A DNA stretch of 32,000 bases, from contig OW818668.1 in assembly GCA_942493105.1 (NCBI GenBank), positions 1,080,001 to 1,112,000 on the forward strand. The letters are read 5' to 3'. This DNA is from an uncultured Erysipelotrichaceae bacterium. Lineage in GTDB: Bacteria > Bacillota_I > Bacilli_A > Erysipelotrichales > Erysipelotrichaceae. The first letter of the stretch is position 1, and each line of letters begins with the position of its first letter. Shown one piece after another: positions 563-32,000 of the stretch. Below the pieces are notes generated by a model, which saw only the letters and a list, made by a program, of their open reading frames with translations, did no database searches and had not been told where the DNA came from. Both the position numbers and the translations under genes were made by a program.

Positions 563-739
563 TTTATCCCTTTCCTCATAATAAAAGCCATTACAAAAAT
601 TGTAACAGAGAATCTTTAGATTTACATATCTATTACATATTGAAGTGAATATTTTGAGGAAGTGTGAAAGTGGATTAGGTCGACATTTATAGAGTAACAA
701 TGTTGAAGTGGTCTGAGAAAAACTACTCAGACTTTGGCT

Positions 740-847
740 TTGGCAAACTCACCGTTGGACAAGATTGGTAGTGCCTAAGCGTTAATACTAGAATGTAGGG
801 AATGCTCCATGTGGAGCTGATACGAAGACCGTGGAGAGTTCTGGAAT
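740..847 (+). ncRNA. R1 element copy 1: unclassified structured-looking intergenic element
   Basis: About 108 nt, roughly 84% identical (hand alignment) to 6093-6201, while flanks are unrelated. Helices: GCTCC 804-808 / GGAGC 813-817 (loop differs between copies); GGACAA 757-762 / TAGT(G)CC 769-775, where A762-T769 is C-G in the other copy; ACTCACC 747-753 / GGAGAGT 833-839. TAG 769-771 stops the frame that is open in copy 2, so it is non-coding. Preceded by hairpin GTCTGAG 711-717 / CTCAGAC 726-732. Confidence 0.55.
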
Positions 848-858
848 TAGATGAATTG

Positions 859-891
859 ATGGTAGACTAGCGGACTAAGAAAAGGGATATT
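859..891 (+). promoter_or_regulatory. S box copy A: conserved promoter-like box (TAGACT 863-868, 17-nt spacer, GATATT 886-891)
   Basis: One of four copies of GGTAGACTA-N8-AAGAAAAGGGATA(A/T)T. The -35-like and -10-like hexamers are exactly 17 nt apart in all copies. Lies 78 nt upstream of ATG 969. This copy lacks the upstream ACACGCATAGTAGG flank. Confidence 0.5.
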
Positions 892-968
892 GGAAATAAT
901 GTTGGGTAGGTCATAAACCTCTCCATGAAAGTCAAAGAAGACCAATTTTCCCAAAATGAGGTATCAAT

Positions 969-1232
969 ATGATATTTAAAAAAACTTGGAAACATAAAAT
1001 CACAGGGCGTGATGGAAACTGCATTCTTTTTGGAGTTAACATCATTAGTTACGAGTGGAATGTTACCGGAGAAAAGATAACAGTTTTTGACCCTAAATAT
1101 CACGAGGAACATATACTTAACGTTTATACTGTTAATATTGATGGAACAATAAAAAGGTTTGCTGCTGGCGAATTTAGCAACGGTGTATGGGGATTCTACT
1201 TAGAAAAATGGTTTATTAAAGTAAGACAATAA
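969..1232 (+). CDS. hypothetical protein (87 aa)
   Basis: ORF track. GAGG 958-961 lies 7 nt before the ATG, within the CAAAATGAGGTA block also found before ORF 4769. No domain recognised. Confidence 0.7.
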   Translation: MIFKKTWKHKITGRDGNCILFGVNIISYEWNVTGEKITVFDPKYHEEHILNVYTVNIDGTIKRFAAGEFSNGVWGFYLEKWFIKVRQ

Positions 1233-1321
1233 GAGGATTGTTGGTTTTTAGATTACAGTGGATTTATAAGAGAGCCCTGTGAGGATTATCATATAAGTAC
1301 AACAGAGTAAAAAGGTTTGGT

Positions 1322-1421
1322 CGTTCCCGTTATCCCGAGGGACACGAACTCACTCAGCCCTTAAGCTAATACTCGTCAACACAGAACGCTTCCCTAAGTG
1401 TCCCGGATTGACAGAGGGAAT
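1322..1421 (+). ncRNA. R3 element copy 1: unclassified structured-looking intercistronic element
   Basis: About 100 nt, ~90% identical to 7799-7897 with unrelated flanks. Complementary arms: GGGACAC 1339-1345 / GTGTCCC 1398-1404; TTCCC 1324-1328 / GGGAA 1416-1420; AAGC 1363-1366 / GCTT 1388-1391 (AAGT/GTTT in copy 2, i.e. G-C changed to G-U on the + strand). Confidence 0.6.
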
Positions 1422-1460
1422 AAGAAAATATTCGAAGGAATTATTATTGGAGGTAACTTG

Positions 1461-2354
1461 GTGAACGAATATAAAGAAGATTGGATCAATGAGACAATCG
1501 ACATATCAATGATAATTAACTTCAAAGAACTAAAAGGGGTACTAGACTGTACTTATGTTGTTCTTGAAATACTCGGTGAGAATCTTGGAACGATTATAAA
1601 AGCGATTTTTTCAAAAGATAAGGTGCGTTATTTATCTTCAGCGCTTATTACTTCACTTGAGAATACAACAAAAAGCATTTATATTTGCTGTAAAATTGGA
1701 AATATCATTGATGCGAATGTTCTTGCGAGAAAGTTCAGAGATGATTTATTTCAACTCTTATTCATTCTTGATTCAATAGAGAAAATTGATCAGTCAAAAA
1801 TTGATTTAACTACCAAAGAAACAAATAATATCAAGTTATTTGCTGATCTTGAAGATTTGGTAGATTTATGGTTTGACAACGAAATACACCTACACAAACA
1901 GAAACATAAATTAAAATACTCTCAATATAAGAGCAGGATTATGGAAAACAACGTGATTCTAAATGGTCTTTATGAAGAGCATTTGAAACTTGCATTTGAG
2001 AATCACGAGAAGCTCGATAATTATGTTCATAGCAACGGTCAAGGTTACACATTAGGGAATCAATTCAGTTTCTCGAGTCGAAAAGAATATGCTCATGAAA
2101 TCTCTTTACTTCAATCAAAGCTGGAAGACATAATGGTTTGCTTTATATCCTCAGCATTTCTCATAAGTCCAGATTTATTCATCAGCGGAGATTATTTCGA
2201 TGCAATAGAAAGACGACAAGTTCCTACAGAAGGTATGAAAAGACAAATCGCTCCAGGAATTCAAGATTTCTTTGACCTTATCGGCAATAGAAAATATAGA
2301 GGATTAGGAAAGTATCTTGCTGACGAAAATAAGTACCATATGAGTATTGAATGA
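1461..2354 (+). CDS. hypothetical protein (~298 aa, predicted alpha-helical)
   Basis: The track ORF starts at GTG 1398, which lies inside the R3 GTGTCCC arm. The in-frame GTG 1461 has GGAGG 1449-1453 seven nt upstream and is the more plausible start. No domain recognised with confidence. Confidence 0.7.
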   Translation: MNEYKEDWINETIDISMIINFKELKGVLDCTYVVLEILGENLGTIIKAIFSKDKVRYLSSALITSLENTTKSIYICCKIGNIIDANVLARKFRDDLFQLLFILDSIEKIDQSKIDLTTKETNNIKLFADLEDLVDLWFDNEIHLHKQKHKLKYSQYKSRIMENNVILNGLYEEHLKLAFENHEKLDNYVHSNGQGYTLGNQFSFSSRKEYAHEISLLQSKLEDIMVCFISSAFLISPDLFISGDYFDAIERRQVPTEGMKRQIAPGIQDFFDLIGNRKYRGLGKYLADENKYHMSIE

Positions 2355-2383
2355 TAGAGATTATTCAATCATTGTGAGTTCTT

Positions 2384-2403
2384 AGGTGTAACATAAGTGT
2401 AAC
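2384..2403 (+). repeat. 20-nt direct repeat, left copy (AGGTGTAACATAAGTGTAAC)
   Basis: Matches 2588-2607 at 19 of 20 positions. Contains GTGTAAC twice, 11 nt apart. Resembles the junction box ..AGAGTAACAAC of other intergenic regions. Confidence 0.7.
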
Positions 2404-2545
2404 GTTTTCCGAGAAAACATCTGTTTTTTATTAATCTTTATTTAAACGATTTATCAAAAAACCCTTATTTTATATACGTTTTTTCATTTTTGATAACGAA
2501 AAATACTCAAAGTTTAGAATCCTGTTGTCGGCACCATGACACATC

Positions 2546-2571
2546 AAACCCTGATAGAATCAGGGTTTTTT
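2546..2571 (+). terminator. rho-independent terminator-like hairpin inside ORF-less segment
   Basis: AAACCCTGAT 2546-2555, loop AGA, ATCAGGGTTT 2559-2568, with the T run extending to 2571. No annotated ORF ends here. Confidence 0.6.
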
Positions 2572-2587
2572 GAACCTCAATTCACTC

Positions 2588-2607
2588 AGGTGTAACAAAA
2601 GTGTAAC
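2588..2607 (+). repeat. 20-nt direct repeat, right copy (AGGTGTAACAAAAGTGTAAC)
   Basis: See 2384-2403. This copy sits at the position where other junctions carry the AGAGTAACAAC box, ~35 nt before the S box flank. Confidence 0.7.
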
Positions 2608-2640
2608 AGTTTAATAAAAAACGATAGAAAAATGTACGAA

Positions 2641-2685
2641 AAACACGCATCGTAGGTAGACTAACGGTTGAAGAAAAGGGATAAT
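2641..2685 (+). promoter_or_regulatory. S box copy B (TAGACT 2657-2662, 17-nt spacer, GATAAT 2680-2685)
   Basis: AAACACGCATCGTAGGTAGACTAACGGTTGAAGAAAAGGGATAAT. Both the flank and the hexamers are conserved with copies C and D. Confidence 0.55.
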
Positions 2686-3984
2686 GAAAACGTGAGTAAA
2701 AGTCAGTTCAATCATGATGTCAAACGTGGCAATGGTCAAGCATACTTGATTCTTTTGAATGCGAAAGACAGAGAGAACTATAAAAATGAGCTTTTAGAAG
2801 CTTGCTTGAGGTGTGACACCTTGAATGCCCAAGATGAACCTGGACGGGCAGATTATCTCTATCGGATGATCAGACTTTATCCTGATCCTAGCTACTTTGA
2901 AGCAAAAATCATTGAGAAACTCAATGATCCCACGATGGAGTTTGGCTTGTTTGACCAATTGTCGGATTTGTTGACCTTTATGGCGAAAGAAGGAAGTCAT
3001 AAGGCACTTGATCATATGTGGGCACTCTACGACATTCTAATTGATAGGATGAAAAACGAGAAGAGTTCGCCGGAAATCGAATCAAATTTGGATCATTTGG
3101 CTGTTGATCTTGATCAGATTCTAGGCTTCACCGCTTTTGAAAAGATCGCTCAGGATTATGTCGACATCAATTTGATGTTGGATCTTCACGATTTTGACAT
3201 GAGTTATTTTTTCTTCATGACTTCAGAAAAATACGGGAAGTCCATAACCCAAGCCTATACTGATCAATTTAAACCCATCAATGAAACTGACAACATTCAT
3301 GATCAACAACGCCCACGACCTGAAAAGGGTAAGATGACCCTTCAGGATATCATCGATCAAAACGATAAACTGAATCATTATCAAATCAGAAAGTATCTGG
3401 AAACGGTCACATCCAAAGAACTCGATGATTTATTTGAGCTGATTAAGAAAGAACCCGATTTCAATCGTCGTTTCCGACTCCTTTCCTTTTTTAGTTTCAC
3501 TGATCATCCCATAGACATCGAATTGGTAATCGGTTGGCTAAAGGACCAAAAAACCCCATTTCCAGATAGGGTATATTGGGTATTATTGAGAAGACCTTGT
3601 TTGGCGGTGTATGACTATGCCAAGAGTAAACTGAGTGATCGAAAGCATGCCAATACTGCCTTGATTTTGATGTGTGCCAGTTTCAATCATCAGGAAAAAG
3701 ATGAACTTATCTATCGTATAAAACATATTAAGAACAAGTTTTTCTTACATGACCTGTTCTCTTGGGCATTATTGAAGTTGTATGAAAGGGATACTAAGGC
3801 ACCGGAGGAATTAATGTGGTATTACTTGCATGAGTCAGTCTGCTCTCACTGTCGATTTTCTTTGGTCAAAATCATGGGCAAAAGGAAACTACTCTCTCGA
3901 GATAATCTGGTGGAATTGACTTTCGATTGTAATCAAAACACGATCGATTATGCAAAATCGCTCCTAGAGGCATATACGGAATAG
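2668..3984 (+). CDS. hypothetical protein (up to 438 aa; start uncertain)
   Basis: Long ORF in track. The TTG 2668 start lies inside the S box spacer. The next in-frame start is GTG 2692, right after the -10-like hexamer. No domain recognised. Confidence 0.7.
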   Translation: MKKRDNENVSKSQFNHDVKRGNGQAYLILLNAKDRENYKNELLEACLRCDTLNAQDEPGRADYLYRMIRLYPDPSYFEAKIIEKLNDPTMEFGLFDQLSDLLTFMAKEGSHKALDHMWALYDILIDRMKNEKSSPEIESNLDHLAVDLDQILGFTAFEKIAQDYVDINLMLDLHDFDMSYFFFMTSEKYGKSITQAYTDQFKPINETDNIHDQQRPRPEKGKMTLQDIIDQNDKLNHYQIRKYLETVTSKELDDLFELIKKEPDFNRRFRLLSFFSFTDHPIDIELVIGWLKDQKTPFPDRVYWVLLRRPCLAVYDYAKSKLSDRKHANTALILMCASFNHQEKDELIYRIKHIKNKFFLHDLFSWALLKLYERDTKAPEELMWYYLHESVCSHCRFSLVKIMGKRKLLSRDNLVELTFDCNQNTIDYAKSLLEAYTE

Positions 3985-4085
3985 TTTAAGCGAATACGAA
4001 TTCAGCGGTGCCTTCTAAGAACTGGTAAAATAAGGTTGCAGTCGAGTTTGAAGCCATTCGTCTTTCAGGAAGAAATCCAGGGAGT

Positions 4086-4607
4086 ATGATAAATCACATG
4101 AAATACAAAGCCATTAATGAAATAAGCCACTTCTCATACCATGATGCTGAAATCACGTCGTTTTCCATTAAGGAACATACAATGCATTGGATCGTAGATG
4201 ATATCAATGCAACTATAGAGAACTCTCAAAACAACTTACCTGAAGACATGCGTATTCTAGGATGCATCATTGAGTTTGAAGATGTTCAAGTTGACGAAAT
4301 CATATTCTGTGCCAACTCGCAGTTTGACGAAAACTGGAATTTAATAAAATCTGAACCAGCAAGAAACGTAAATCCTTCTGAATTTGCGACTATTCTTGAA
4401 GAAACCATGAATTCCTGGTGTCGTATCCAAGATTTATCAGCATTGCCCGAAACGAATAATGGAAGATATAGAATCAGTATCTGTCTTGATGGTCATGTTG
4501 GAATTTACAATCTTAACATATCATATAGGACATTCATTGCGCAGTGGGATGAATATTACGGAAAAGCTTGGTATGAAGAAGAACGATGGAAAAACAGTAA
4601 GAAGTGA
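4086..4607 (+). CDS. hypothetical protein (173 aa)
   Basis: ORF track. AGGGAG lies just upstream. ATG 4086 or ATG 4098 are both possible starts. There is no S box between it and the preceding gene, so it is probably co-transcribed. Confidence 0.7.
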   Translation: MINHMKYKAINEISHFSYHDAEITSFSIKEHTMHWIVDDINATIENSQNNLPEDMRILGCIIEFEDVQVDEIIFCANSQFDENWNLIKSEPARNVNPSEFATILEETMNSWCRIQDLSALPETNNGRYRISICLDGHVGIYNLNISYRTFIAQWDEYYGKAWYEEERWKNSKK

Positions 4608-4624
4608 ATGTTGAGCAAATTTGG

Positions 4625-4665
4625 GTGTGTTGAGAATATGCAGTTCGGCTATTTAGAGTAACAAC
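4625..4665 (+). repeat. cassette-junction boxes J1 (GTGTGTTGAGAATATG) and J2 (ATTTAGAGTAACAAC)
   Basis: J2 aligns with 685-700 (ATTTATAGAGTAACAA), 6061-6076 and 11141-11153. The J1 core TGTTGAGAA recurs at 6011-6026 (GTGTTGAAAATA) and 7755-7770 (TTGTTGAGAAAC), always shortly after a stop codon. Confidence 0.4.
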
Positions 4666-4674
4666 ATAATAATT

Positions 4675-4717
4675 AAACACATAGTAGGTAGACTATCAGA
4701 TGAAGAAAAGGGATAAT
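4675..4717 (+). promoter_or_regulatory. S box copy C (TAGACT 4689-4694, 17-nt spacer, GATAAT 4712-4717)
   Basis: AAACACATAGTAGGTAGACTATCAGATGAAGAAAAGGGATAAT, 52 nt upstream of TTG 4769. Confidence 0.55.
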
Positions 4718-4768
4718 GAGAATAGACATTATAACTCGAATGGGTCTTCAAAATGAGGTAACAATAAT

Positions 4769-5992
4769 TTGGATAAACAAAAATATGAAAGATGTACTCC
4801 CCACAGAGACGAAGTATTTAAGAATGAATACCGTTCTTTTTTTGCTTTGAACAAAGTGGAAATGCAATGGAACCAGGTTTATCTAAATCAATCGACTTCT
4901 GTTTATTTTGATGGGGATATCATTGTCAAAGTGATTGAAAACAAACTTGTGGTTTGTGAAGATGGAACTCTGTTTGGCTCTTATATAGAATTTGATACAT
5001 TTGATAATACCGAATCCAGAAGCTTTATTTTACCAAAAACCAATCGGGGGAAAAAGAAGAAGATTACTCCTTCCTCAGTCATGAGTATACTGCCCCAAGG
5101 ATGCAGCTTCTATTTCTTTATATCTGACGAAGATTCTAGTAATAGGATAGTTTTATTAAACAATCGAAACAATCAGGAGATCAGAATCACTGGATTTGAT
5201 AGTGTAAGGACCGCAAACCAATTACATTCCTTTTTTGAGGATTATGTTAAGACATGCCCCAATGATTACTTTGAGAAAATTGATCGATTGAGAAATGCAA
5301 AGCATGTTACCATTAAATACCGCACTGGTGATATCTTTAGGTTCGATTTGGACCGAAGCCATTATGGTTATGGATTGATCATTGCCAGTATCTCAAAACT
5401 AGAGAAAGATAAATTGATTTATCCTCCTCATGGTTTGTGTACACTGATGGGTCAAGGTTTGATCATTCGGTTATATAAGATCAGCACTGAAGATCCAAAC
5501 TTGAAGTCTGAAAATCTTAGAAGCATTGACTTATTGCCTGCTGATGCTATGATGGATAATACCATTATATGGAATAGACACCCTATCGTTGATCATAAAA
5601 AACTAGAGGAAAATGACGTAGATTTTCCGTTTCAACTTAGTAAAACTACGAGCGGAAACATCGTGTTGGATCGTTTTATAAGCTGGGGAATCGGTATTAA
5701 GAAATCGGACCAACATAGTTTCCCTACAAATACTAAATTCAGCTGGAAATCTAATTTAGCTATATCGCAAATTATTCCTTATTATCTACTGGAGAAAGCG
5801 TTACAAGGTTGTTCGGGCACCAGTGTTTATTCAGATTTGCGTCACCCAGATAACATCGAACAATACCATGCTGTTTTAGAATATTTCGGCCTAGATCCCG
5901 AGATAAGTTTTGATGAATTTAATCGGTCTTGCGGAGGAATGACAAGAAAGCAGTATGCAGATTACATAAATTTCCCAAAAGATCAGAACTAA
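4769..5992 (+). CDS. hypothetical protein (407 aa); C-terminal half faintly reminiscent of Imm26-type immunity proteins
   Basis: ORF track. GAGG 4755-4758 is in the shared CAAAATGAGGTA block (4749-4760). The segment YRTGDIFRFDLDRSHYGYGLIIASI resembles the GDxFxxPL..G.YGxG pattern I associate with Imm26-like proteins. This is from memory only and is not verified. Confidence 0.65.
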   Translation: MDKQKYERCTPHRDEVFKNEYRSFFALNKVEMQWNQVYLNQSTSVYFDGDIIVKVIENKLVVCEDGTLFGSYIEFDTFDNTESRSFILPKTNRGKKKKITPSSVMSILPQGCSFYFFISDEDSSNRIVLLNNRNNQEIRITGFDSVRTANQLHSFFEDYVKTCPNDYFEKIDRLRNAKHVTIKYRTGDIFRFDLDRSHYGYGLIIASISKLEKDKLIYPPHGLCTLMGQGLIIRLYKISTEDPNLKSENLRSIDLLPADAMMDNTIIWNRHPIVDHKKLEENDVDFPFQLSKTTSGNIVLDRFISWGIGIKKSDQHSFPTNTKFSWKSNLAISQIIPYYLLEKALQGCSGTSVYSDLRHPDNIEQYHAVLEYFGLDPEISFDEFNRSCGGMTRKQYADYINFPKDQN

Positions 5993-6092
5993 GTATCGGT
6001 TGAATTGGAACGTGTTGAAAATAGCGAAATCCTTTGTAAAAATAACATTGTGATACAGAAATTTATAGTATCAAATAAATCATATCACGCTC

Positions 6093-6201
6093 TTGGCAAA
6101 CTCATTGTGGGACACGATTGGGTGTGCCTAAGCGTTCATACTAGACTGTGGGGAATGCTCCACCTGGAGCGAATACGAAGACCGTGGTGCGTTCTGAGAA
6201 T
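6093..6201 (+). ncRNA. R1 element copy 2
   Basis: Aligns with 740-847. Helices: GCTCC 6157-6161 / GGAGC 6166-6170; GGACAC 6110-6115 / GTGT(G)CC 6122-6128; ACTCATT 6100-6106 / GGTGCGT 6186-6192. The track ORF 6005-6259 spans it but is stopped in the other copy. Confidence 0.55.
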
Positions 6202-6269
6202 GGACTGTAGTATTTATATAAAAGCGCCTATAAAAATCAGTGGATACACTCACAAATGAATTGAGGAAA

Positions 6270-6830
6270 ATGATGCTTAAGAACGAAAATACTAAACTTC
6301 CTTCTTATCGAATACCAATTATCATGATTTTTGGTGCTGTATTGTTATACTTCGCAATCTTCGCAATCGATGACTTTTTTGATTTCAGCGAGGGGTTCTT
6401 AAGAAATCTGTACTTTAGTGTTATGGGAGCAATATGTATTAGTACACTACTTTTCAATCTTTTTGAATTGGGCAATGTTTTAGATAAGCGCAATCTAGCT
6501 AAACTAAAAAGAACAAAAAAAGAAGAGCTTCGTTTTGTTAAGATACCATTGGAAGAAATACTTCATCTATGCGAATCAAATGATATTTTACGAATTGTCA
6601 TTACAACAGATTCTGGGATCGTAAAGACTGGCTCAGCTTCAGATTTGAATAGGAGAACTGGTAAGTTCTTTGACAAGGTTTATTATATCGATGATGATAA
6701 TTTCAATACAATTGAACAATATAGCCAGACCTTAACAGAGCGCATTCATGGTGATAGGTATTTATCTGTGATTACGATTGAGGATCTGCCTCCAACAGAA
6801 TTCAATAGGAAGTATTTAAATAATTTATAA
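6270..6830 (+). CDS. membrane protein (two N-terminal TM helices plus a soluble C-terminal domain)
   Basis: The track ORF starts at 6240. The in-frame ATGATG at 6270 follows GAGG 6263-6266 and gives MMLKNENTKLPSYRIPIIMIFGAVLLYFAIF. Hydrophobic stretches are visible by eye. Confidence 0.7.
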   Translation: MMLKNENTKLPSYRIPIIMIFGAVLLYFAIFAIDDFFDFSEGFLRNLYFSVMGAICISTLLFNLFELGNVLDKRNLAKLKRTKKEELRFVKIPLEEILHLCESNDILRIVITTDSGIVKTGSASDLNRRTGKFFDKVYYIDDDNFNTIEQYSQTLTERIHGDRYLSVITIEDLPPTEFNRKYLNNL

Positions 6831-6838
6831 TCCACATA

Positions 6839-6870
6839 ATTCAATTCATTTGCTTGCATTTGAATTGAAT
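6839..6870 (+). terminator. AT-rich hairpin after ORF 6270-6830 (weak terminator candidate)
   Basis: ATTCAATTCA 6839-6848 / TGAATTGAAT 6861-6870 with a 12-nt loop. There is no clear T tract afterwards. Confidence 0.3.
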
Positions 6871-6894
6871 AGTTTAGATGAGAGTCCAGAAATA

Positions 6895-6936
6895 CACGCA
6901 TAGTAGGTAGACTATAAGGGCAATAAAAGGGATAAT
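6895..6936 (+). promoter_or_regulatory. S box copy D (TAGACT 6908-6913, 17-nt spacer, GATAAT 6931-6936)
   Basis: ACACGCATAGTAGGTAGACTATAAGGGCAATAAAAGGGATAAT. The implied TSS near 6943 would leave GGTGG 6950-6954 plus ATG 6959 as the translation start. Confidence 0.55.
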
Positions 6937-6958
6937 AATGATAACAACGGGTGGCAAT

Positions 6959-7351
6959 ATGAAAAAGAATAATTTGCTGTTAATTTCTTGGATTCTGACT
7001 GTCTTATATTTTCTTCTACTGTATAAATCGCTAAGTAACATTGGTTCACAAACAAACGATGCTTCTGGCATTATCGCGCTTGGCCTATTAGGTATTTTTG
7101 TGTTTCCACATATTATCTTGGCTTTTCTAGGAGGTTTATTTAATATTCTCGGTTGGGCACTCAATAAGAAAGGATTTGCACTTACTGGGGCTATTCTGTA
7201 TTCCGTGGCTATGGTATTTATGATTCCGCTTTTTTATTTCCTCATCATTCAAATGGTGTTGTCATATATCGGGTACGCAACTATGAATACTTCTATCCAA
7301 AATAGTAATAGAAACGAAAGACGGAATTTGGACGATTACCGATCACTATAA
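6959..7351 (+). CDS. small polytopic membrane protein (~4 TM)
   Basis: The track ORF starts at 6938, 2 nt after the -10-like hexamer. The in-frame ATG 6959 (MKKNNLLLISWILTVLYFLLL) has an SD-like GGTGG. The protein is mostly hydrophobic. Confidence 0.7.
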   Translation: MKKNNLLLISWILTVLYFLLLYKSLSNIGSQTNDASGIIALGLLGIFVFPHIILAFLGGLFNILGWALNKKGFALTGAILYSVAMVFMIPLFYFLIIQMVLSYIGYATMNTSIQNSNRNERRNLDDYRSL

Positions 7352-7417
7352 CGCTATTCATTAATGAACATTATTTGAAAAGCGACTCATTTTCGAAATT
7401 TAATTGCGGAGTAAAGA

Positions 7418-7747
7418 ATGAAAATACTAAGAAAGTGCATATTGACAATGTTTATAGTAGTCTCTCTTTTTGGGGGGATATTTTGGTATTATCATCCAAC
7501 ACATTATAAATACAATGGCCGGTTTATCATTGGAAGTTCTATAGAAGAGATCACGTCCGAATACGGTGACTTTGATAAGGTTTTTTACACAGATTCCAGC
7601 AACATCACAATATCGGGTGCTGGATATCTCGTTCAACAAGAAAAGAAGGGGTTCTTAGGAACAAGCCCTGAAAAGTACTATATGATCGTCTTTGATTCTA
7701 CCGGGAAGGCAATTTCGGTATCCATTGGGGGTGGGTGGGGTGGCTAA
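7418..7747 (+). CDS. small membrane-anchored protein (109 aa, N-terminal TM)
   Basis: ORF track. GGAG lies 7 nt before the ATG. N-terminal hydrophobic segment CILTMFIVVSLFGGIFWYY. Confidence 0.7.
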   Translation: MKILRKCILTMFIVVSLFGGIFWYYHPTHYKYNGRFIIGSSIEEITSEYGDFDKVFYTDSSNITISGAGYLVQQEKKGFLGTSPEKYYMIVFDSTGKAISVSIGGGWGG

Positions 7748-7798
7748 GAGCCAGGCTTGTTGAGAAACGAATAATCCCTAATCACAGCTTAGATCATC

Positions 7799-7897
7799 TG
7801 TCCCATCATCCCGAGGGACACGAATGCACCCAGCCCTTAAGTTAATACTCGTCAACATAGAACGTTTCCCTAAGTGTCCCGGACTGACAGAGGGAAT
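7799..7897 (+). ncRNA. R3 element copy 2
   Basis: Aligns with 1322-1421. Arms: GGGACAC 7815-7821 / GTGTCCC 7874-7880; TCCC 7801-7804 / GGGA 7892-7895; AAGT 7839-7842 / GTTT 7864-7867. Ends 46 nt before ATG 7944. Confidence 0.6.
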
Positions 7898-7943
7898 GAA
7901 TTTATTGCCGGTGATATTTAGAGATTAAAAATATGGTGGGGAT

Positions 7944-8828
7944 ATGAAACGTAAAACTAAAAGAACAATTTGGATTATAGTGACATTTTTTGCATTAATG
8001 ATTTTGGCTGACTATTCAAACAACAATCAGGAAACAAGTAGTTCAATAATCGGTTTTCTTGAGCTCAGTGTTATTGTTATATCAATTATATCTTTCGGTA
8101 AACTGTTTGGTCCAAAGAAAGTGAATAAAGCTCCGTTTATAACTGAAAGACCCTATAATTCTTCTCAAACTAACAATGAAGCAACAATGGATCTTTCGCT
8201 TTTTACTAATATCAATTCCTATACAGTTCCTCAAGAAACTTATCCAGAACATTCTGGAAGAATTGGGGAGAATCGGGTTGCTAAAGAGCTTAGCAAATTA
8301 GGTATTGGACGAAAGATCATTAGAAACCTAATAATTGGAAATGATCACGCTACAACAGAAATTGATTGTGTATTTATCACTGAGTGCGGAATTTATGTTA
8401 TTGAATCGAAAAACTTCAATGGATGGATCTTTGGTAATCTATCTCAAAAAAATTGGACGCAGACATTTCCTAATCAAACAAAAAATCAGTTTTTTAATCC
8501 AGTTCTCCAGAATCAGGGTCACATTAACGCACTTCGATATCTTTTAGATAAGTACCCAGGTATTGATATAAGATCAGTGATCGTTTTTTCTGATAGTGCA
8601 ACTCTAAAGAAGATACCAGAGTCGACAAATGATCTGCTTATTCTTAATGAGTCTGAACTGTATAAAATACTTGAGGCATCAATAGAATATAACAAAAAAA
8701 TAAGGCGAGGACCTACTTTAACACCAGATCAAATCTATCGCATTTGGTTTTTCCTTTATCAACATAATATTGAATCTTTCAGGAAACGCGATAAGCATAT
8801 AGAAAATGTTCAGAATAAGAAAATATAA
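7944..8828 (+). CDS. NERD (nuclease-related domain) protein with two N-terminal TM segments
   Basis: GENRVAKELSKLG...EIDCVFITECGIYVIESKNFNGWIFG...NPVLQNQGHINALRYLL...VIVFSD matches the NERD pattern (E-x-D, EVK-type core) as I know it. N-terminal hydrophobic stretches are present. GGTGGGG SD lies before the ATG. Confidence 0.8.
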   Translation: MKRKTKRTIWIIVTFFALMILADYSNNNQETSSSIIGFLELSVIVISIISFGKLFGPKKVNKAPFITERPYNSSQTNNEATMDLSLFTNINSYTVPQETYPEHSGRIGENRVAKELSKLGIGRKIIRNLIIGNDHATTEIDCVFITECGIYVIESKNFNGWIFGNLSQKNWTQTFPNQTKNQFFNPVLQNQGHINALRYLLDKYPGIDIRSVIVFSDSATLKKIPESTNDLLILNESELYKILEASIEYNKKIRRGPTLTPDQIYRIWFFLYQHNIESFRKRDKHIENVQNKKI

Positions 8829-8890
8829 AACTAGATCTCAGCATAAATCTTCAGTACCCATATTAATTTGAGTCAAATATTTCTATGATG

Positions 8891-8953
8891 GCCTTGAGAG
8901 ATACAAGTCTAATTAGACGCTATCCAAAGTGTCCCAGATTGACAGAAGGGGAT
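8891..8953 (+). repeat. R3 element copy 3: 5'-truncated and diverged
   Basis: GCCTTGAGAGATACAAGTCTAATTAGACGCTATCCAAAGTGTCCCAGATTGACAGAAGGGGAT aligns with the 3' two-thirds of R3 (1358-1421). Agreement is best over the last ~38 nt. The GGGACAC arm is absent. Confidence 0.55.
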
Positions 8954-9173
8954 GTAGAGTCTGTTCTTTTAATTTTCCTGAAATCTTTATTCATTTTAAT
9001 AGATAATGTAATTTAAGACATATTGAATCATCTTTTCTTTAGTAAAAAGCTTGATTAAGTAGAAGGAATTTAAGAAGGACGCATTTTTTAATCAATCATA
9101 TACATATCGTTCAAGGTTTAGAGGATAAGTTGGTGATTCATTAATTCAGGATTGAAAGACTTTGTATAAAACA

Positions 9174-11094: not shown

Positions 11095-11184
11095 CTTAAT
11101 TCTAGCGGCTAATACTAAACGATAAAAAGTGTACCAAATACATTTATAGTATGTAGATTATAAGGATAAAAACAATTATACAAT
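11095..11184 (+). repeat. degenerate R3-like remnant plus J2-like box plus S-like box
   Basis: CTTAATTCTAGCGGCTAATACTAAACG..AAGTGTACC (compare R3 CTTAAGCTAATACTCG...AAGTGTCCC). Then ACATTTATAGTATG (J2). Then AGTATGTAGATTATAAGGATAAAAACAATTATACAAT (compare S copy D AGTAGGTAGACTATAAGGGCAATAAAAGGGATAATAAT). TAGATT 11154-11159 is followed by TATACA after 17 nt or TACAAT after 19 nt. Confidence 0.4.
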
Positions 11185-12301: not shown

Positions 12302-13798
12302 TCATTGACCCCAAGGCGTTATCTTTAAGATGTCTTGGTATTTTTTTAGATACAGAGTGATCGAGAAATCTCCTTCATCTTGACTAAAATCAAACACGAA
12401 CTCATTGGTAAAGGAAATGGCATATTCCCCTAGAAAAGAATGAACTGAAAGGGTAGGAGCCAAGGCTTCATAGACTTCATCCAGATCATAGTCTTCTTGG
12501 TATTCGCTGTCACTGATGATTTGAGCAATTTGATCTTTTATGAAAGAGCGGTAATCAAATCCATCGATGAAGACATCCTTCATCGTAAGAAGGGTTCCGT
12601 CTGCTTTGTAAGTTTGTCTTACCCCACGCACGACTTCACCATCGGCATATATAGAACTTCTGACATTCAGATAGGGTCCATCAAGGCTTGCGCTGAATTC
12701 ATAATAAACGGCTGTATGTGTTTTGATAAGTTCTAACAGAATGTTGCGCTCATGACTTAGAATGGTGGCTCTCATGTTTTTATATTTTTCGGGGAATTCA
12801 TCATCATAATAAATCCTAGAATGAAGGGTATGTCCATCAATGATTTCATTGAGGACATCTGTATGAGTCTGATACAGATAATTCTTTGTTTTTAGGGTAC
12901 TTGGATTGGTGAAAAGAGATTGATCATTATGAACAAAACGCTGCCCAAAAGCCAATATATCTTTGAAACCCTGCATTTTGAATTCCATGGAGACTGTTGA
13001 GAAATCATTGATAAACTCTGGATAATGTTCGTTGAACAGTAAATTGATTCTGTTGTCAATTATGAAAAACTTAAGATCACCGCGGATTCCTTTGAACCCA
13101 CCCACATACTGATAACTGTCGATCCATCCTTGTAGTTCATCTTTGATCGGATCGGTCATACTTTGGGATTTAAGCAAGATGGCTTCATTCAATCTGCTTT
13201 CGAAATCGCTGCCATTGATGAACAGATCACTCAATGTCAATTCATCTCCTGTATTCAAATCAAAATTCATCGCATCCATAATCGAAAAATCTTTGTAGTC
13301 ATCTTTGGCATTGATCAGTATTGAAGCATAAAAGCGGACGGATAAGATATGGTTGGCATTGAAGTAAGGATAACAAGAAATATTGATGCTTTTTATGGTG
13401 CGTTTGTCTTTGGGATAAGCAGCATAAAATCCAGGATAAACCGGTAAATTATCAAACTTGGCATATTTTTTAAAATCATTGATTTTATCGTCGATTTTTT
13501 GGTTGATGAGATCTTCAACCGTTTGATTCAAGAGTCCATCGATATGCATGGTTCCATAATCAATGAGTACCCCATCTTGAGTGGTTTCTGCTGGGTATTC
13601 GATGAAGTTAGTTTCAATACCGTTAGAGAACCAAGTATTTTCAGTGTCTGCTTGAGTTACTGTGCCATGAGGCAATGCAAATGAAATGGCATCTGGAGTA
13701 GGAATCTCAGGAAAAGGTTCACGCTCTGGGGTCACAAGCTTTGTACAGGCACTTAAACTAAGAAGTCCTATCAATCCGATCAATAGTTGCTTTTTCAT
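12302..13798 (-). CDS. lipoprotein, function unknown (possibly DUF3298/DUF4163-like)
   Basis: Signal peptide with lipobox LSAC. The domain guess rests only on the general look of the sequence (IDGL..QTVEDLINQKIDDKINDF). The start overlaps the upstream stop (ATGA). Confidence 0.75.
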   Translation of the reverse strand: MKKQLLIGLIGLLSLSACTKLVTPEREPFPEIPTPDAISFALPHGTVTQADTENTWFSNGIETNFIEYPAETTQDGVLIDYGTMHIDGLLNQTVEDLINQKIDDKINDFKKYAKFDNLPVYPGFYAAYPKDKRTIKSINISCYPYFNANHILSVRFYASILINAKDDYKDFSIMDAMNFDLNTGDELTLSDLFINGSDFESRLNEAILLKSQSMTDPIKDELQGWIDSYQYVGGFKGIRGDLKFFIIDNRINLLFNEHYPEFINDFSTVSMEFKMQGFKDILAFGQRFVHNDQSLFTNPSTLKTKNYLYQTHTDVLNEIIDGHTLHSRIYYDDEFPEKYKNMRATILSHERNILLELIKTHTAVYYEFSASLDGPYLNVRSSIYADGEVVRGVRQTYKADGTLLTMKDVFIDGFDYRSFIKDQIAQIISDSEYQEDYDLDEVYEALAPTLSVHSFLGEYAISFTNEFVFDFSQDEGDFSITLYLKKYQDILKITPWGQ

Positions 13799-29214: not shown

Positions 29215-30459
29215 TTAGTTAACGCCGTTGAATGCGAAGTTTCCTTCTATAAATATGGAATAAGCTTTGTTTTCTTTATCATATCCAGTTACTTTAAGAT
29301 CTTTAGAACCAAACATGAAGTCAATGTGTATTTTTGAATGATTCAGATGAAACTGACTCCATTCATTTAGATCTGTACTTGAACATCCTTCAATACAGCT
29401 TGGAAATCCTCTTCCGATAGCCAAATGACAGGCTGCATTTTCATCATATAAAGTATTGAAGAATAGGAGCCCTGATTGAGCGATGGGGCTTTTTTCTTGT
29501 ACGAAAGCCACTTCACCTAAGTATGAAGCCCCTTCATCTGAAGCGACAAGTTCGGTAAGCAACTCAAGATTCTTATCGGCTATGATTCTTACGATTTTTC
29601 CTTCTTTAAACTCAAATCCGAAATCTTCAATGATGGTTCCGCCTAATTCTAAAGGTTTGGTTGCATAAACAATCCCATCAACTCTAAACTTATCTGGAGA
29701 GGTACATACTTCTTCAGTTGGGATATTTGCGACAAAGCGAATGACATCATCCCCACGACTGAATCGTGCATTGGGATGAAGCCCTATGGTTAAATCAGTA
29801 CCTAGTGCATTCTCAAAATGAAGGCGATCTAGTTTGAAACTATCCAAAACCTTACCGAAAGATGCAAGATCACTTAAATGTTTCTTCCAATTTTCAACAG
29901 GGTCTTCATTTAATCGTATGCGACAGATGTCATATACTGCATCAAACATTTTATTGAGTGCAACATCTGGAAGATCATCAGGGTATAAGGTTTGAGCCCA
30001 GAGTTGATTTGGATAAGAAGCGATACACCAGGTAATGTTGTCTTTCGCAATATAAGCTCGTATATGATTTCTTAAATCATTGGTGAAAGATTGAAGTGCA
30101 CTAGAGGCAGCATTGGATACATCTTTGAATAGATAAGGATAAGCTGATTTGATGAGCAAAGAACAGGCACCTTGTTTAAGATAATGAAGACGAGATTCCT
30201 TTTGCCAGTCTTTGACTTCTTTGATGTCATTTGGATCTAGGTTTAAACAACGTTCTTTATCGATGATCGCATCTGTGTAAAATACAATGACGTCCTTAGC
30301 TTTACGTTTAAATGCTGCTTCAGTGCATGCTTGAACCAAAGGGTAGGCATCAACCGGAGCTTCGATGATGAGAATTTGATCGGCCTGTAGATTGACACCC
30401 ATTTCAATCAATAGCTGTGCATATTTTGTAAGACGTTCATCGTGTGTGCTTACTTGCAT
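29215..30459 (-). CDS. M29 family aminopeptidase (AmpS/PepS-like, aminopeptidase T type)
   Basis: Length of 414 aa and sequence character (LAKLLV-type N-terminus, ...EE.C.SP...G......P........I.......F..G..V, ...NT..DEN...H.A.G) match thermophilic-type aminopeptidase II as I recall it. Confidence 0.75.
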   Translation of the reverse strand: MQVSTHDERLTKYAQLLIEMGVNLQADQILIIEAPVDAYPLVQACTEAAFKRKAKDVIVFYTDAIIDKERCLNLDPNDIKEVKDWQKESRLHYLKQGACSLLIKSAYPYLFKDVSNAASSALQSFTNDLRNHIRAYIAKDNITWCIASYPNQLWAQTLYPDDLPDVALNKMFDAVYDICRIRLNEDPVENWKKHLSDLASFGKVLDSFKLDRLHFENALGTDLTIGLHPNARFSRGDDVIRFVANIPTEEVCTSPDKFRVDGIVYATKPLELGGTIIEDFGFEFKEGKIVRIIADKNLELLTELVASDEGASYLGEVAFVQEKSPIAQSGLLFFNTLYDENAACHLAIGRGFPSCIEGCSSTDLNEWSQFHLNHSKIHIDFMFGSKDLKVTGYDKENKAYSIFIEGNFAFNGVN

Positions 30460-31619
30460 ACATAGATTCCATTTTGACGGGTGGTTAAATATTCTGTTGT
30501 TTCATGACCGATCAATGCCATGTCTTCTTGGCCAATACGACCATCTTTGAATTCAATGTTTATGTCGACTGTAAAGATCATCCCCACTTCCATATTGGCT
30601 TCAACACGACCTAAATAGCGCTCCCACCTTGGACCCATCATGACTCCGCCATCGTGCGTTTCACGACCGACTTGATGACCAAACCCGAAGTTGAAATCTG
30701 GATATCCAAAAGCTTTGATGGCTTCTCGTGCTGCTTCATCAGGGACGTAAGCTGGGGTATTGGGACGCATAAGGGCTAATCCCACATCTTGAGCTTTCTG
30801 AATGTTGGTTAAGGCTTGTTGATAATGTTGAGGAACTTCGGTTTCACCATCGTTGAGCACATAGTAAACCCGTTGAATGTCTGAACAATAATCATCTACT
30901 CTTACCCCAAAATCTAAAGTAACAAGTTCACCTTTTTTACAGGTATATTCACCAGGACCAGCGTGTCCCATTGGGGCATTTTTAAGCATGACGCCAGGAT
31001 TATGTTTTATTTCCCAGGCATTGCCTTGTTGATAATGGCGGATTCGATCTTGACAGAATTGATGAATTTCGATTTGTGATTTACCAGCTGTAATAAAGTC
31101 TTTTGCCTCAAGAAGAATTTTTTCTGTACACGCAATTGCTTTTTTGATGGCTGCTAGCTCAGAGCTTGTTTTGATGCCTCTTAATCGATTGATGATGCCT
31201 ACAGCACTGATGATTTCACCTTTATATCCAAACTCGTTAAATAGCTTGGTGAGAAATAAAAACATCCCATGAGTTAATCCATCACTTGCGACATCACTGG
31301 AATAGTTTAGTGCAATCTGTTGCGGTTTTAATCGATCTAAGAGCTCAAAGAAGGCGTCCTTAAAGGATTTATCATAAGAGATGACTTCATCATAGAGGGC
31401 TTGTTGTTGCATGCCATAGGCATCAAGATGTCCTGCTAAACAAATACTGAACTTAGGAGTAATGATGATGGCGGTGTTGCTACCTAATTGAAGGGTGGAT
31501 AAAAAGGGTAGAACAGGTTCTGAATTCATAACGGTTTCTCGACCGATGGTGATCCACATATCGATCTTAAGATCTTCTAAAATTCCTTTTGCTTGACTGA
31601 TTTTTTCTTTTTGTAACAT
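30450..31619 (-). CDS. M24 family peptidase (Xaa-Pro aminopeptidase/dipeptidase-like)
   Basis: The track ORF extends to 31655. The internal ATG (complement of 31617-31619) has AAAGGAG five nt upstream. The pita-bread region D.G......Y.SD..R, ...GH..G...H and ..VD are present. The stop overlaps the next gene start by 10 nt. Confidence 0.8.
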   Translation of the reverse strand: MLQKEKISQAKGILEDLKIDMWITIGRETVMNSEPVLPFLSTLQLGSNTAIIITPKFSICLAGHLDAYGMQQQALYDEVISYDKSFKDAFFELLDRLKPQQIALNYSSDVASDGLTHGMFLFLTKLFNEFGYKGEIISAVGIINRLRGIKTSSELAAIKKAIACTEKILLEAKDFITAGKSQIEIHQFCQDRIRHYQQGNAWEIKHNPGVMLKNAPMGHAGPGEYTCKKGELVTLDFGVRVDDYCSDIQRVYYVLNDGETEVPQHYQQALTNIQKAQDVGLALMRPNTPAYVPDEAAREAIKAFGYPDFNFGFGHQVGRETHDGGVMMGPRWERYLGRVEANMEVGMIFTVDINIEFKDGRIGQEDMALIGHETTEYLTTRQNGIYVCK

Positions 31620-31629
31620 GTTGGCTCCT

Positions 31630-32000
31630 TTATAGCTCAAATCGAGACCGATCAAATTTTGATAAGAATTCTGCCCCAGTTTCAGTCACCAGGATCATAT
31701 CCTCTACACGCATATAACATTCATCCACAAAAAACATCTTTGGTTCACTACAGAAAACCATGCCTGGTTTTAGAATAAAGTCCACTGAACGATTGACCAT
31801 AGGGTGTTCATGACAATCGATACCAATCTGATGACCTAAGTTACCTTTCTCTTGGAAACGAAGATCCTTACCATATCCTAACTCTGTAACTTTCTTTAAT
31901 ACTAGATCATAAAGTTCATTGTTGTTGGTTTTATAAGGGACTATGCTTTCTACCATGAATTGTTGACCTGCTTGTAAAGCATGATAGGCATTTTTTATAT
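31630..32000 (-). CDS. M24 family peptidase, C-terminal part (gene continues beyond right edge)
   Basis: The frame stays open to position 32000 upstream of the track Met (..IKNAYHALQAGQQFMVES..). GHQIGIDCHEHP and MVFCSEP...RVEDMILVTETG are typical of the M24 C-terminal domain. Confidence 0.75.
   Translation of the reverse strand, partial: IKNAYHALQAGQQFMVESIVPYKTNNNELYDLVLKKVTELGYGKDLRFQEKGNLGHQIGIDCHEHPMVNRSVDFILKPGMVFCSEPKMFFVDECYMRVEDMILVTETGAEFLSKFDRSRFEL

Follow-up and report, generated by a model that had tools for sequence, protein, structure and literature searches.

It is not settled by what route orphan immunity genes are brought together in arrays and replaced over time, and for the Bacteroidales the sole clue consists of a recombinase and repetitive spacers. 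The question is raised again by a locus in a 32,000-nucleotide (nt) stretch of contig OW818668.1 from an uncultured Erysipelotrichaceae bacterium, hereafter called the window, in which nine open reading frames (ORFs) on the + strand at 969-8828 are separated by spacers built largely of the reused modules R1, R3, SEG, S, J1 and J2. Heterogeneous polyimmunity loci have been described by Zhang, Iyer and Aravind (2012, PMC3482391), and the orphan-immunity clusters rAID-1 of the Bacteroidales by Ross et al. (2019, bioRxiv 10.1101/471110). We give about an even chance to the reading that our locus is a variable island of orphan-immunity type, in which small integrase-less units would have been accreted in tandem at a tRNA-Thr gene and then reshuffled by recombination between promoter-bearing modules.

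The ten spacers of the array were compared all against all by BLAST, with 60 dinucleotide-preserving shuffles as control. Eleven high-scoring segment pairs of at least 30 bits were obtained (best 116 bits, 715 nt aligned), compared to none in the 60 shuffles, where the best score was 29.7 bits. The modules made up 1283 of 2009 spacer nt (64%). Two R1 copies (740-847 and 6093-6201) were 85% identical over 109 nt (E ~1e-26, BLAST) and two R3 copies (1325-1432 and 7801-7906) were 88-91% identical (E ~4e-29). J1 and J2 were short within the window and aligned to longer conserved blocks in related loci. Outside 600-8955 no copy of R1, R3 or SEG was detected in the window, and the sole match there was a weak S-like stretch (11136-11180). 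The nine ORFs were mutually unrelated, with no protein pair within the window at E<1e-5. Both the reuse of spacer modules and the co-oriented, unrelated genes had been proposed in an initial annotation of this DNA, and the comparison bore this out, with each large module recovered at or within a few bases of where it had been placed. The decayed R1 copy, the relic of an IS3-family insertion sequence (IS) at the right end and, inside what had been called an ORF-less segment, the 3' end of a tRNA-Thr (2520-2536) had escaped that annotation.

This tRNA end belongs to SEG, which is laid out in the order heptad pair DR1, weak hairpin, AT-rich arm of ~115 nt, core (tRNA end and terminator), heptad pair DR2 and S. 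In the window copy DR1 is at 2386-2403, the weak hairpin with a T-run at 2404-2430 is followed by the conserved AT-rich arm, and the core consists of the 17-nt 3' end of tRNA-Thr, TCCTGTTGTCGGCACCA, at the position given above and an intrinsic terminator at 2546-2575, with DR2 at 2590-2607. Relative to the core, the tandem GTGTAAC heptads are placed ~135 nt on the upstream side and ~70 nt on the downstream side; the 20-mer GTGTAAC-N4-GTGTAAC was matched twice in the window, at DR1 and DR2, against 0.08 matches expected. The 17-nt TCCTGTTGTCGGCACCA and the terminator were present in every SEG copy, including that of the window (2520-2575), as direct repeats bounding inserted DNA, and the terminator stem showed compensatory changes (CCCTGAT/ATCAGGG, GCCTTAT/ATAAGGC and CCCTTAT/ATAAGGG).

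Two related arrays have a tRNA-Thr gene at their start, contig L030 at 241-316 (CGT) and contig L033 at 7253-7326 (GGT), as identified with Rfam and ARAGORN. From TCCTGTTGTCGGCACCA on, the tRNA region of L030 was essentially co-linear with every SEG copy (tRNA end, variable spacer of 8-10 nt, terminator, DR2, S); upstream of it the tRNA body and SEG were unrelated. The array start comprises the tRNA, the core and the downstream arm and is attL-like, internal SEG copies have both arms, and the terminal SEG of L034 has kept the core and terminator and lost DR2 and S, which is attR-like. An array could contain as many as 4-5 copies of SEG with both arms around the core. The SEG-bounded units were 2-5 kb long with 2-7 ORFs, and none of them encoded an integrase. 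By comparison with a lambda-type attP, the heptad pairs of SEG are placed where the arm-type sites of a tyrosine integrase would be expected. Judged from its sequence, SEG would be a junction of attP type formed round the 3' end of tRNA-Thr, and its forms at the start, in the interior and at the end of arrays show the pattern expected of tandem site-specific insertion at a tRNA gene. Because SEG is built on the 3' end of tRNA-Thr, it points to accretion of the phage or island type at a tRNA gene and not to integron chemistry. The start of SEG (GTTTTCCGAGAAAACTAT...) may resemble the streptococcal XerS site difSL, a likeness on which nothing was based. SEG was also a site of IS insertion: an IS3-family element (- strand) together with an IS110-family transposase gene (+ strand) was found in the loop of the SEG terminator hairpin at L030 5264-8343 and L035 54-2973, and at the corresponding SEG position of L032 (oriented 6770-6790), 16 nt of that IS end (TTCTGAGTCTG.TCAT) were matched.

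The same modules are present in ~10 metagenome contigs, probably from at least five related low-GC Bacillota. The orthologue of the Imm26 protein of the window (59%) led to a JGI contig, L028, with R1 (three full and two partial copies), R3 (two), S (four) and a whole SEG. A metagenome scan with a 21-base R1 pattern gave six further contigs with several co-oriented copies each, and others were reached through cassette homologues. The ends of L030 and L032 coincide over 663 nt (100%), and the two contigs make up one array of ~16 kb. In the related contigs all module copies were co-oriented and 0.5-1.3 kb apart, and small co-oriented ORFs of 60-440 amino acids (aa) were separated by R1, R3, R1+R3, R1+S, R3+S, J1+SEG+S or, in some cases, by no module at all. 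In L040 (ENA ERZ27239121), a 15-gene array of greater divergence, five copies of R3 and two of S were present, and R1 and SEG were absent; module usage thus differs between lineages. Distant cassette homologues were also found where modules are absent, one alone among housekeeping genes (L042/L043) and another, a 41% homologue of the 169-aa cassette, three genes downstream of a co-oriented tyrosine recombinase (L044 163-2673) in a context that looks like a mobile element (primase-like gene, resolvase).

The modules were specific to the arrays. In profile searches, 386 kb of control loci (L001-L027, among them metagenome-assembled genomes (MAGs) of Izemoplasmatales) were free of modules, and so was ~45 kb of non-array DNA flanking the window array and those of L028, L034 and L035. 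Viral contigs gave no match for four module patterns, a plasmid collection gave no match, and the R3 pattern was absent from the GTDB representative genomes.

Between genomes, module identity was 82-95% (SEG 82-88%, R1 up to 94%, S up to 95%), and for L028 against the window it was 78-95%. Cassettes compared between genomes at the nt level were 66% (the orthologous Imm26 genes of L028 and the window), 79% (the 169-aa cassette) and in one case 92% identical (a 182-aa ORF, L028 against L033). A 1148-aa core gene outside the array had 69% nt and 72% aa identity between L028 and L032, whereas between the same genomes SEG had 84-86% and R1 ~90%. The identity of R1 copies within a genome (0.81) was about that between genomes (0.82), which indicates that copies are not homogenised within a genome and would have been selected or exchanged horizontally.

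Cassettes and modules assort independently. The 169-aa ORF is placed behind the decayed R1 and before J1/J2 and S in the window (4098-4607), and behind a full R1 and before SEG in L032 (6001-6507, 75% aa identity). Imm26 has J1/J2 and S upstream and J1-J2-R1 downstream in the window, and R3 with a degenerate S upstream and an R1 fragment downstream in L028. The 182-aa ORF, at 92% nt identity, follows R3 and S in L028 and no module in L033. Conversely, one and the same composite of R1 and R3 stands before ORFs of L029 and L032 that are not related to each other. Homology of the common cassettes ended 0-45 nt outside the ORF, so that in essence the ORF and its ribosome-binding region make up what is moved. 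In L028 (15794-19240) and L032/L037 (8107-11604) the arrays adjoin the same large conserved gene in opposite relative orientation, so that the position of the island is roughly conserved between these contigs, unlike in the window.

Among the window cassettes two of nine had Pfam matches, to Imm26 and NERD, and NCBIfam and PADLOC added only weak NERD-related matches. In 41 ORFs of the sister arrays single matches were found to YxiG-like, DUF4279, DUF4304, DUF2691, DUF5071, DUF7336, Imm32, GNAT, LRR, Lcl_C and zinc ribbons, and L040 contained Imm32, DUF4279, DUF4304, DUF2691 and VanZ. Many other sister-array products were small membrane proteins or lipoproteins, and the function of most products was not assigned. 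No toxin domain was found in the arrays. The cassette DUFs are, as we assume, linked to immunity, and the content suggests that the array is an orphan-immunity ('polyimmunity') island. A polymorphic-toxin immunity island had been one guess of the initial annotation, and it fits the Pfam results for Imm26 in the window and for Imm32, YxiG-like, DUF4279, DUF4304 and DUF2691 in the sister arrays.

Within the modules, S has the box TAGACT-17-GATAAT in 13 of 18 copies, with one or two differences in the remaining five, followed by the conserved GAGAATAAC..TTGGGTGGGA. R1 consists of TTGGGT-18-TAGAnT, an invariant GCTCC-N4-GGAGC hairpin with a variable loop and the invariant GAATACGAAGACCGTGG, and J1 has TTGAGA-17-TAAAAT-like boxes. 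From these consensus matches S, R1 and J1 would carry promoter boxes of the sigma-A type. The assumption that each unit has its own promoter box was borne out to the extent that several modules contain promoter-like boxes, all of them consensus matches only. R1 and R3 have in common the 9-mer GGGACACGA and a second block, GCC.TAAGC.T.AATACT. A hybrid copy (L029 996-1174) joins the 5' arm of R3 to the 3' part of R1 at GGGACACGA, and an ORF of L030 (3152-3862) lies between a 5' and a 3' part of R1 split at the hairpin. R1 has a 10-bp terminal inverted repeat, and short ones were also present in R3 and the SEG core region. No similarity to tRNA-Thr genes was detected in R1, R3, J1 or J2. A coding role of R1 and SEG was rejected: the consensus has an open frame, and stops occurred in 7 of 18 R1 copies, with no third-position bias and some frameshifts. 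A palindrome within S, ATAGT-N6-ACTAT, was not significant alone (3 matches against 1.5 expected).

These observations would fit together as follows. Units of 2-5 kb without integrase would insert site-specifically in tandem at tRNA-Thr, the internal SEG copies being the unit junctions; it is from the attP-like layout of SEG that we infer growth of the island in this way. As no SEG-bounded unit encodes an integrase, we propose that the enzyme acts in trans. The promoter boxes of S (part of the downstream arm), J1 and R1, with the R1 leader hairpin, could give units and cassettes their own expression signals, and the SEG terminator may insulate one unit from the next. Modules of 60-250 nt at 80-95% identity around the cassettes would be a substrate for general recombination, within the array or with DNA of relatives, which could delete, swap and reorder cassettes and leave behind hybrids (R3/R1 at GGGACACGA), stubs and decayed copies. 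IS activity may have been an additional disturbance, with IS3 and IS110 in L030/L035 and an IS3 relic in the window.

Several results weigh against this reading. The window has one SEG; most of its junctions are R1, R3 or S, for which the mechanism is not established. There is no tRNA gene in the window, where the array starts beside a divergent ORFan, and anchoring at tRNA-Thr is therefore shown in relatives only. Pfam searches with all window ORFs of 90 aa or longer revealed no recombinase in the whole 32 kb, and those with the ORFs flanking the related arrays revealed neither an integrase nor another recombinase in the flanks available. A recognised immunity domain is present in one of nine window cassettes, against 3-5 per sister array, where a heterogeneous polyimmunity locus would comprise at least four co-oriented genes in tandem that belong to different immunity families, without a toxin gene. 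Near-identical contigs (only L035-L039) were all of one structure. The promoter boxes and terminators are consensus matches only, and promoter-like sites in the region were not in overall excess (39 found, 35 expected from shuffles). For R1, RNAalifold on 18 copies gave no covariation, and for R3 a long-range helix proposed by hand was rejected since its pairing was not preserved across 12 copies. Truncated copies of R1 and R3 other than the hybrid and the split one broke at differing positions. With pairing not preserved and truncation points that vary, R1 and R3 could be sites of recombination or leaders, or could combine the two roles; a positive sign of recombination sites was not seen.

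Part of the evidence can be explained if the modules are conserved for expression only, as promoters, leaders and terminators of co-regulated genes of one family under purifying selection, with the island altered only by ordinary recombination (homologous or illegitimate) and horizontal transfer, the tRNA-Thr piece of SEG derived from one old duplication and site-specific integration inactive. The promoter-like boxes, the covarying terminator and the failure to find a recombinase agree with this, as do the varied R1 breakpoints, the decayed copies and the S-like element before a gene of ordinary function (aldo/keto reductase). Against it stand the recurrence of SEG with both arms, as often as 4-5 times in an array, the exact start of two arrays at tRNA-Thr genes of differing isoacceptor type, and the terminal SEG that lacks its downstream arm. 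Such a pattern is not predicted from a plain duplication, and we consider the explanation doubtful. Strongly conserved non-coding DNA upstream of ORFs, together with the invariant R1 hairpin, could also be expected if R1, R3 and the upstream arm of SEG were a new structured cis-regulatory or small RNA family controlling the cassettes. Such a family is quite improbable given that Rfam had nothing at gathering score for the modules (two chance-level matches only, at E<=5), that covariation was not seen and that R1 and R3 folded no better than shuffles on both strands (z-scores -1.3 to +0.4).

The swapping of cassettes at shared junctions, as supposed in the initial annotation, was supported as far as the array is cassette-like, with the same modules before unrelated ORFs and the same cassettes behind other modules. 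An integron-type mechanism, to which the annotation had likened it, was not supported. In an integron-like platform R1 and R3 would be attC-like sites (with GGGACACGA or the GCTCC-N4-GGAGC hairpin as core) at which a recombinase encoded elsewhere captures ORFs singly; besides the co-oriented array of unrelated ORFs, the terminal inverted repeat of R1 and its invariant hairpin with variable loop, the R3/R1 hybrid joined at the common 9-mer, the L030 ORF between R1 halves and the precedent of rAID-1 can be cited for it. The ends of R1 and R3 lack RYYYAAC/GTTRRRY boxes, though, and these modules showed neither covariation nor preserved pairing, nor fold energies better than shuffles. Several junctions, moreover, have no module (in the window 7352-7417, between ORF 7 and ORF 8), breakpoints vary, which does not support a single crossover point in R1/R3, and no integrase is found beside any array in the flanks examined. 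We therefore regard such a platform as improbable; that the junctions are not attC and that the window has no recombinase was already recognised in the initial annotation. Very improbable, finally, is a selfish dispersed repeat family accumulating here with no role for the genes, of the type of miniature inverted-repeat transposable elements (MITEs), BOX or neisserial intergenic mosaic elements (NIMEs). Star-like divergence from the consensus with equal identity within and between genomes, the short terminal inverted repeats of R1, R3 and the SEG core region and a modular mosaic as in BOX and NIME would suit it. The copies are nevertheless all co-oriented with the genes and confined to the arrays (0 in ~45 kb of flanks and 386 kb of controls), the alignment has no target-site duplications, a matching transposase is missing and the modules are more conserved than a core gene.

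The features of the array and its borders are collected in Table 1.

Table 1. Cassettes, repeat modules and border features of the array in window coordinates.
Feature	Position	Strand	Evidence or remark
Divergent left neighbour, 203-aa ORFan	1-562 (runs off window)	-	Sole match is the 100%-identical P0025 (203 aa)
J2, conserved upstream extension of R1 (GGTCGAC-TTT-TAGAGT-ACAATGTTGAAGT)	660-724	+	Aligns upstream of R1 in L028, L029, L032, L033, L034
R1 copy 1	725-847	+	nhmmer E=4e-34 (extent 725-843)
S copy 1, TAGACT-17-GATATT promoter-like box and conserved leader	846-914	+	
ORF 1, 87 aa	969-1232	+	No family match
R3 copy 1	1314-1427	+	Repeat search, BLAST, nhmmer
ORF 2, ~297 aa	1461-2354	+	Weak sub-threshold DUF5677 match only
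SEG, putative attP-like junction module	2379-2626	+	Not coding
S copy 2, TAGACT-17-GATAAT	2635-2691	+	
ORF 3, ~430 aa	2692-3984	+	No family match; last ~16 codons run into decayed R1
Decayed R1	3938-4021	+	64% to R1 positions 27-115; 5-nt deletion in hairpin
ORF 4, 169 aa	4098-4607	+	Homologues 75-89% in sister arrays behind other modules
J1 and J2, short copies	4618-4666	+	
S copy 3	4672-4725	+	
ORF 5, 407 aa, Imm26 domain	4769-5992	+	Pfam E=2e-20; orthologue P0003 at 59%
J1 and J2	6000-6077	+	
R1 copy 2, near family consensus	6078-6204	+	nhmmer extent 6078-6198
ORF 6, 196 aa, membrane protein	6240-6830	+	
S copy 4	6890-6957	+	Imperfect hairpin 6830-6879 upstream
ORF 7	6959-7351	+	
ORF 8	7418-7747	+	
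J1, short copy	7752-7790	+	
R3 copy 2	7792-7904	+	
ORF 9, 294 aa, transmembrane segment and NERD domain	7944-8828	+	Pfam E=1e-28
R3 stub, 3' half only	8891-8954	+	Start also called at 8901
IS3-family relic: terminal-repeat-like TAGAGTCTGTTCTTTTAATT (TAGAGTCTGTTC...) and 31-aa transposase fragment	8956-9070 (approx.)	-	Directly after R3 stub

The 3' end of ORF 3 appears to have been recruited from R1 sequence. Before R3 copy 1 lies a short block, TTTATAAGAGAGCCCT.TGAGGA (~1262-1300), which is also present in L028 at 13630-13660 (match of 1178-1302 to L028). The transposase fragment of the IS3 relic was identified by tblastn (8975-9067, 61% to the IS3 OrfB of L030, E=5e-6), and as the relic follows the R3 stub immediately, the array is scarred on its right side.

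The G+C content of the window is ~36%, with no compositional break at the array. The left-hand ORFan had no Pfam match. At its ribosome-binding site and start (552-576; - strand AGGAAAGGGATAAAATGAATAAACA) it has a likeness to an inverted 3' part of S (inverted repeats I2 and I18), which may mark a cassette that was inverted or the breakpoint of an inversion at the left border of the array. To the right of the array lie an ABC-2 transporter and, beyond it, genes for common signalling and metabolic functions. By one flanking gene the nearest relatives of this low-GC lineage of Bacillota, which is poorly sampled, are Izemoplasmatales-like MAGs; for the flanking ABC-2 permease, the GTDB representative genomes contained relatives only at 50-72% identity, and the island was absent there. 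The S-like stretch outside the array (11136-11180) matches S at 75% over 48 nt, including ATAGTATGTAGATTAT, and is located ~110 nt upstream of the aldo/keto reductase gene; S may thus be a more general promoter or operator type of the source organism. Far from the array, at 30450-31956 on the - strand, two adjacent overlapping ORFs of 401 aa and 108 aa both match Peptidase_M24, the shorter one only the C-terminal part of the domain, and this pair could be a partial duplication or a disrupted gene.

For the question of how orphan immunity arrays are built, the locus offers a testable anatomy in another phylum than the Bacteroidales, with a repeated junction on tRNA-Thr that looks attP-like, spacers with putative promoters that are better conserved than the genes, and examples of reassortment. 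With profiles of R1, R3, SEG and S, islands of this kind are recovered from metagenomes with no need for protein homology. Taken further, accretion at tRNA-Thr could amount to a capture platform of Bacillota related to wall-less lineages, with tiny integrase-less units, attP-like tRNA-Thr sites, a host-encoded integrase acting in trans and possible re-sorting through R1 and R3. We hold this to be unlikely; if true, orphan immunity genes would be stocked in Gram-positive bacteria through att chemistry of the phage type, by a functional counterpart of integrons and rAID-1.

Among known systems, polyimmunity loci and rAID-1 likewise consist of co-oriented, diverse small genes including immunity families, without toxin, and differ in content between relatives. 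For rAID-1, repetitive intergenic sequences 'reminiscent of integrons' have been reported (Ross et al. 2019, bioRxiv 10.1101/471110), and our locus likewise combines orphan immunity genes with repetitive intergenic sequences. An rAID-1 cluster is headed by a recombinase of the XerD family, whereas none was found here in the window or the examined flanks. The present locus also differs in its phylum, in having at least five module types rather than one motif, of which one is based on tRNA-Thr and attP-like, and, compared to both rAID-1 and polyimmunity loci, in that a minority of the cassettes have a recognised immunity domain.

Sedentary chromosomal integrons, such as those with the Vibrio cholerae repeats (VCRs), also combine co-oriented unrelated and mostly unassigned ORFs with repeats of ~120 nt, whose mutual similarity is far higher than that of the genes. 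Unlike them, the arrays described here have no IntI and no attC boxes or conserved hairpin, some junctions are without module, several repeat types are used and the cassettes bring candidate promoters. For a CALIN, an IntI-type tyrosine recombinase beside the array is not required; attC sites, which are imperfect palindromes with RYYYAAC ... GTTRRRY boxes and a conserved fold, and a recombination site at each cassette junction belong to CALINs as to integrons, and our arrays have neither. NIMEs, made of dRS3 and RS repeats, cluster round maf toxin/immunity loci and silent cassettes and probably favour recombination. Intergenic DNA assembled from reusable short modules is common to NIME, the pneumococcal BOX elements and our arrays; there is no sequence relation, however, and our modules are longer, all point the same way, occur only in the island and seem partly derived from att. 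In comparison with MITEs, the modules have short inverted repeats but no target-site duplication, and they are not dispersed in both orientations.

Tandem elements that target tRNA genes are known from the accretion of genomic islands and from integrase-less cis-mobilizable elements (CIMEs), and composite elements from the staphylococcal cassette chromosome (SCC) and pseudo-SCC of staphylococci. As in our arrays, direct repeats of the target 3' end bound the units, and units without recombinase can lie between att repeats; an intact target gene stands at the start, as it does in L030 and L033. The units described here are very small in comparison (2-5 kb, 2-7 genes) and no integrase was found; both arms are kept at the junction, which has a putative built-in promoter, and a second layer of repeats (R1, R3, S) is present inside the units. 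What is new in our locus is the SEG module, which holds the tRNA-Thr 3' end and a terminator between GTGTAAC heptads, the locus being otherwise a variant of known orphan-immunity and tRNA-island systems.

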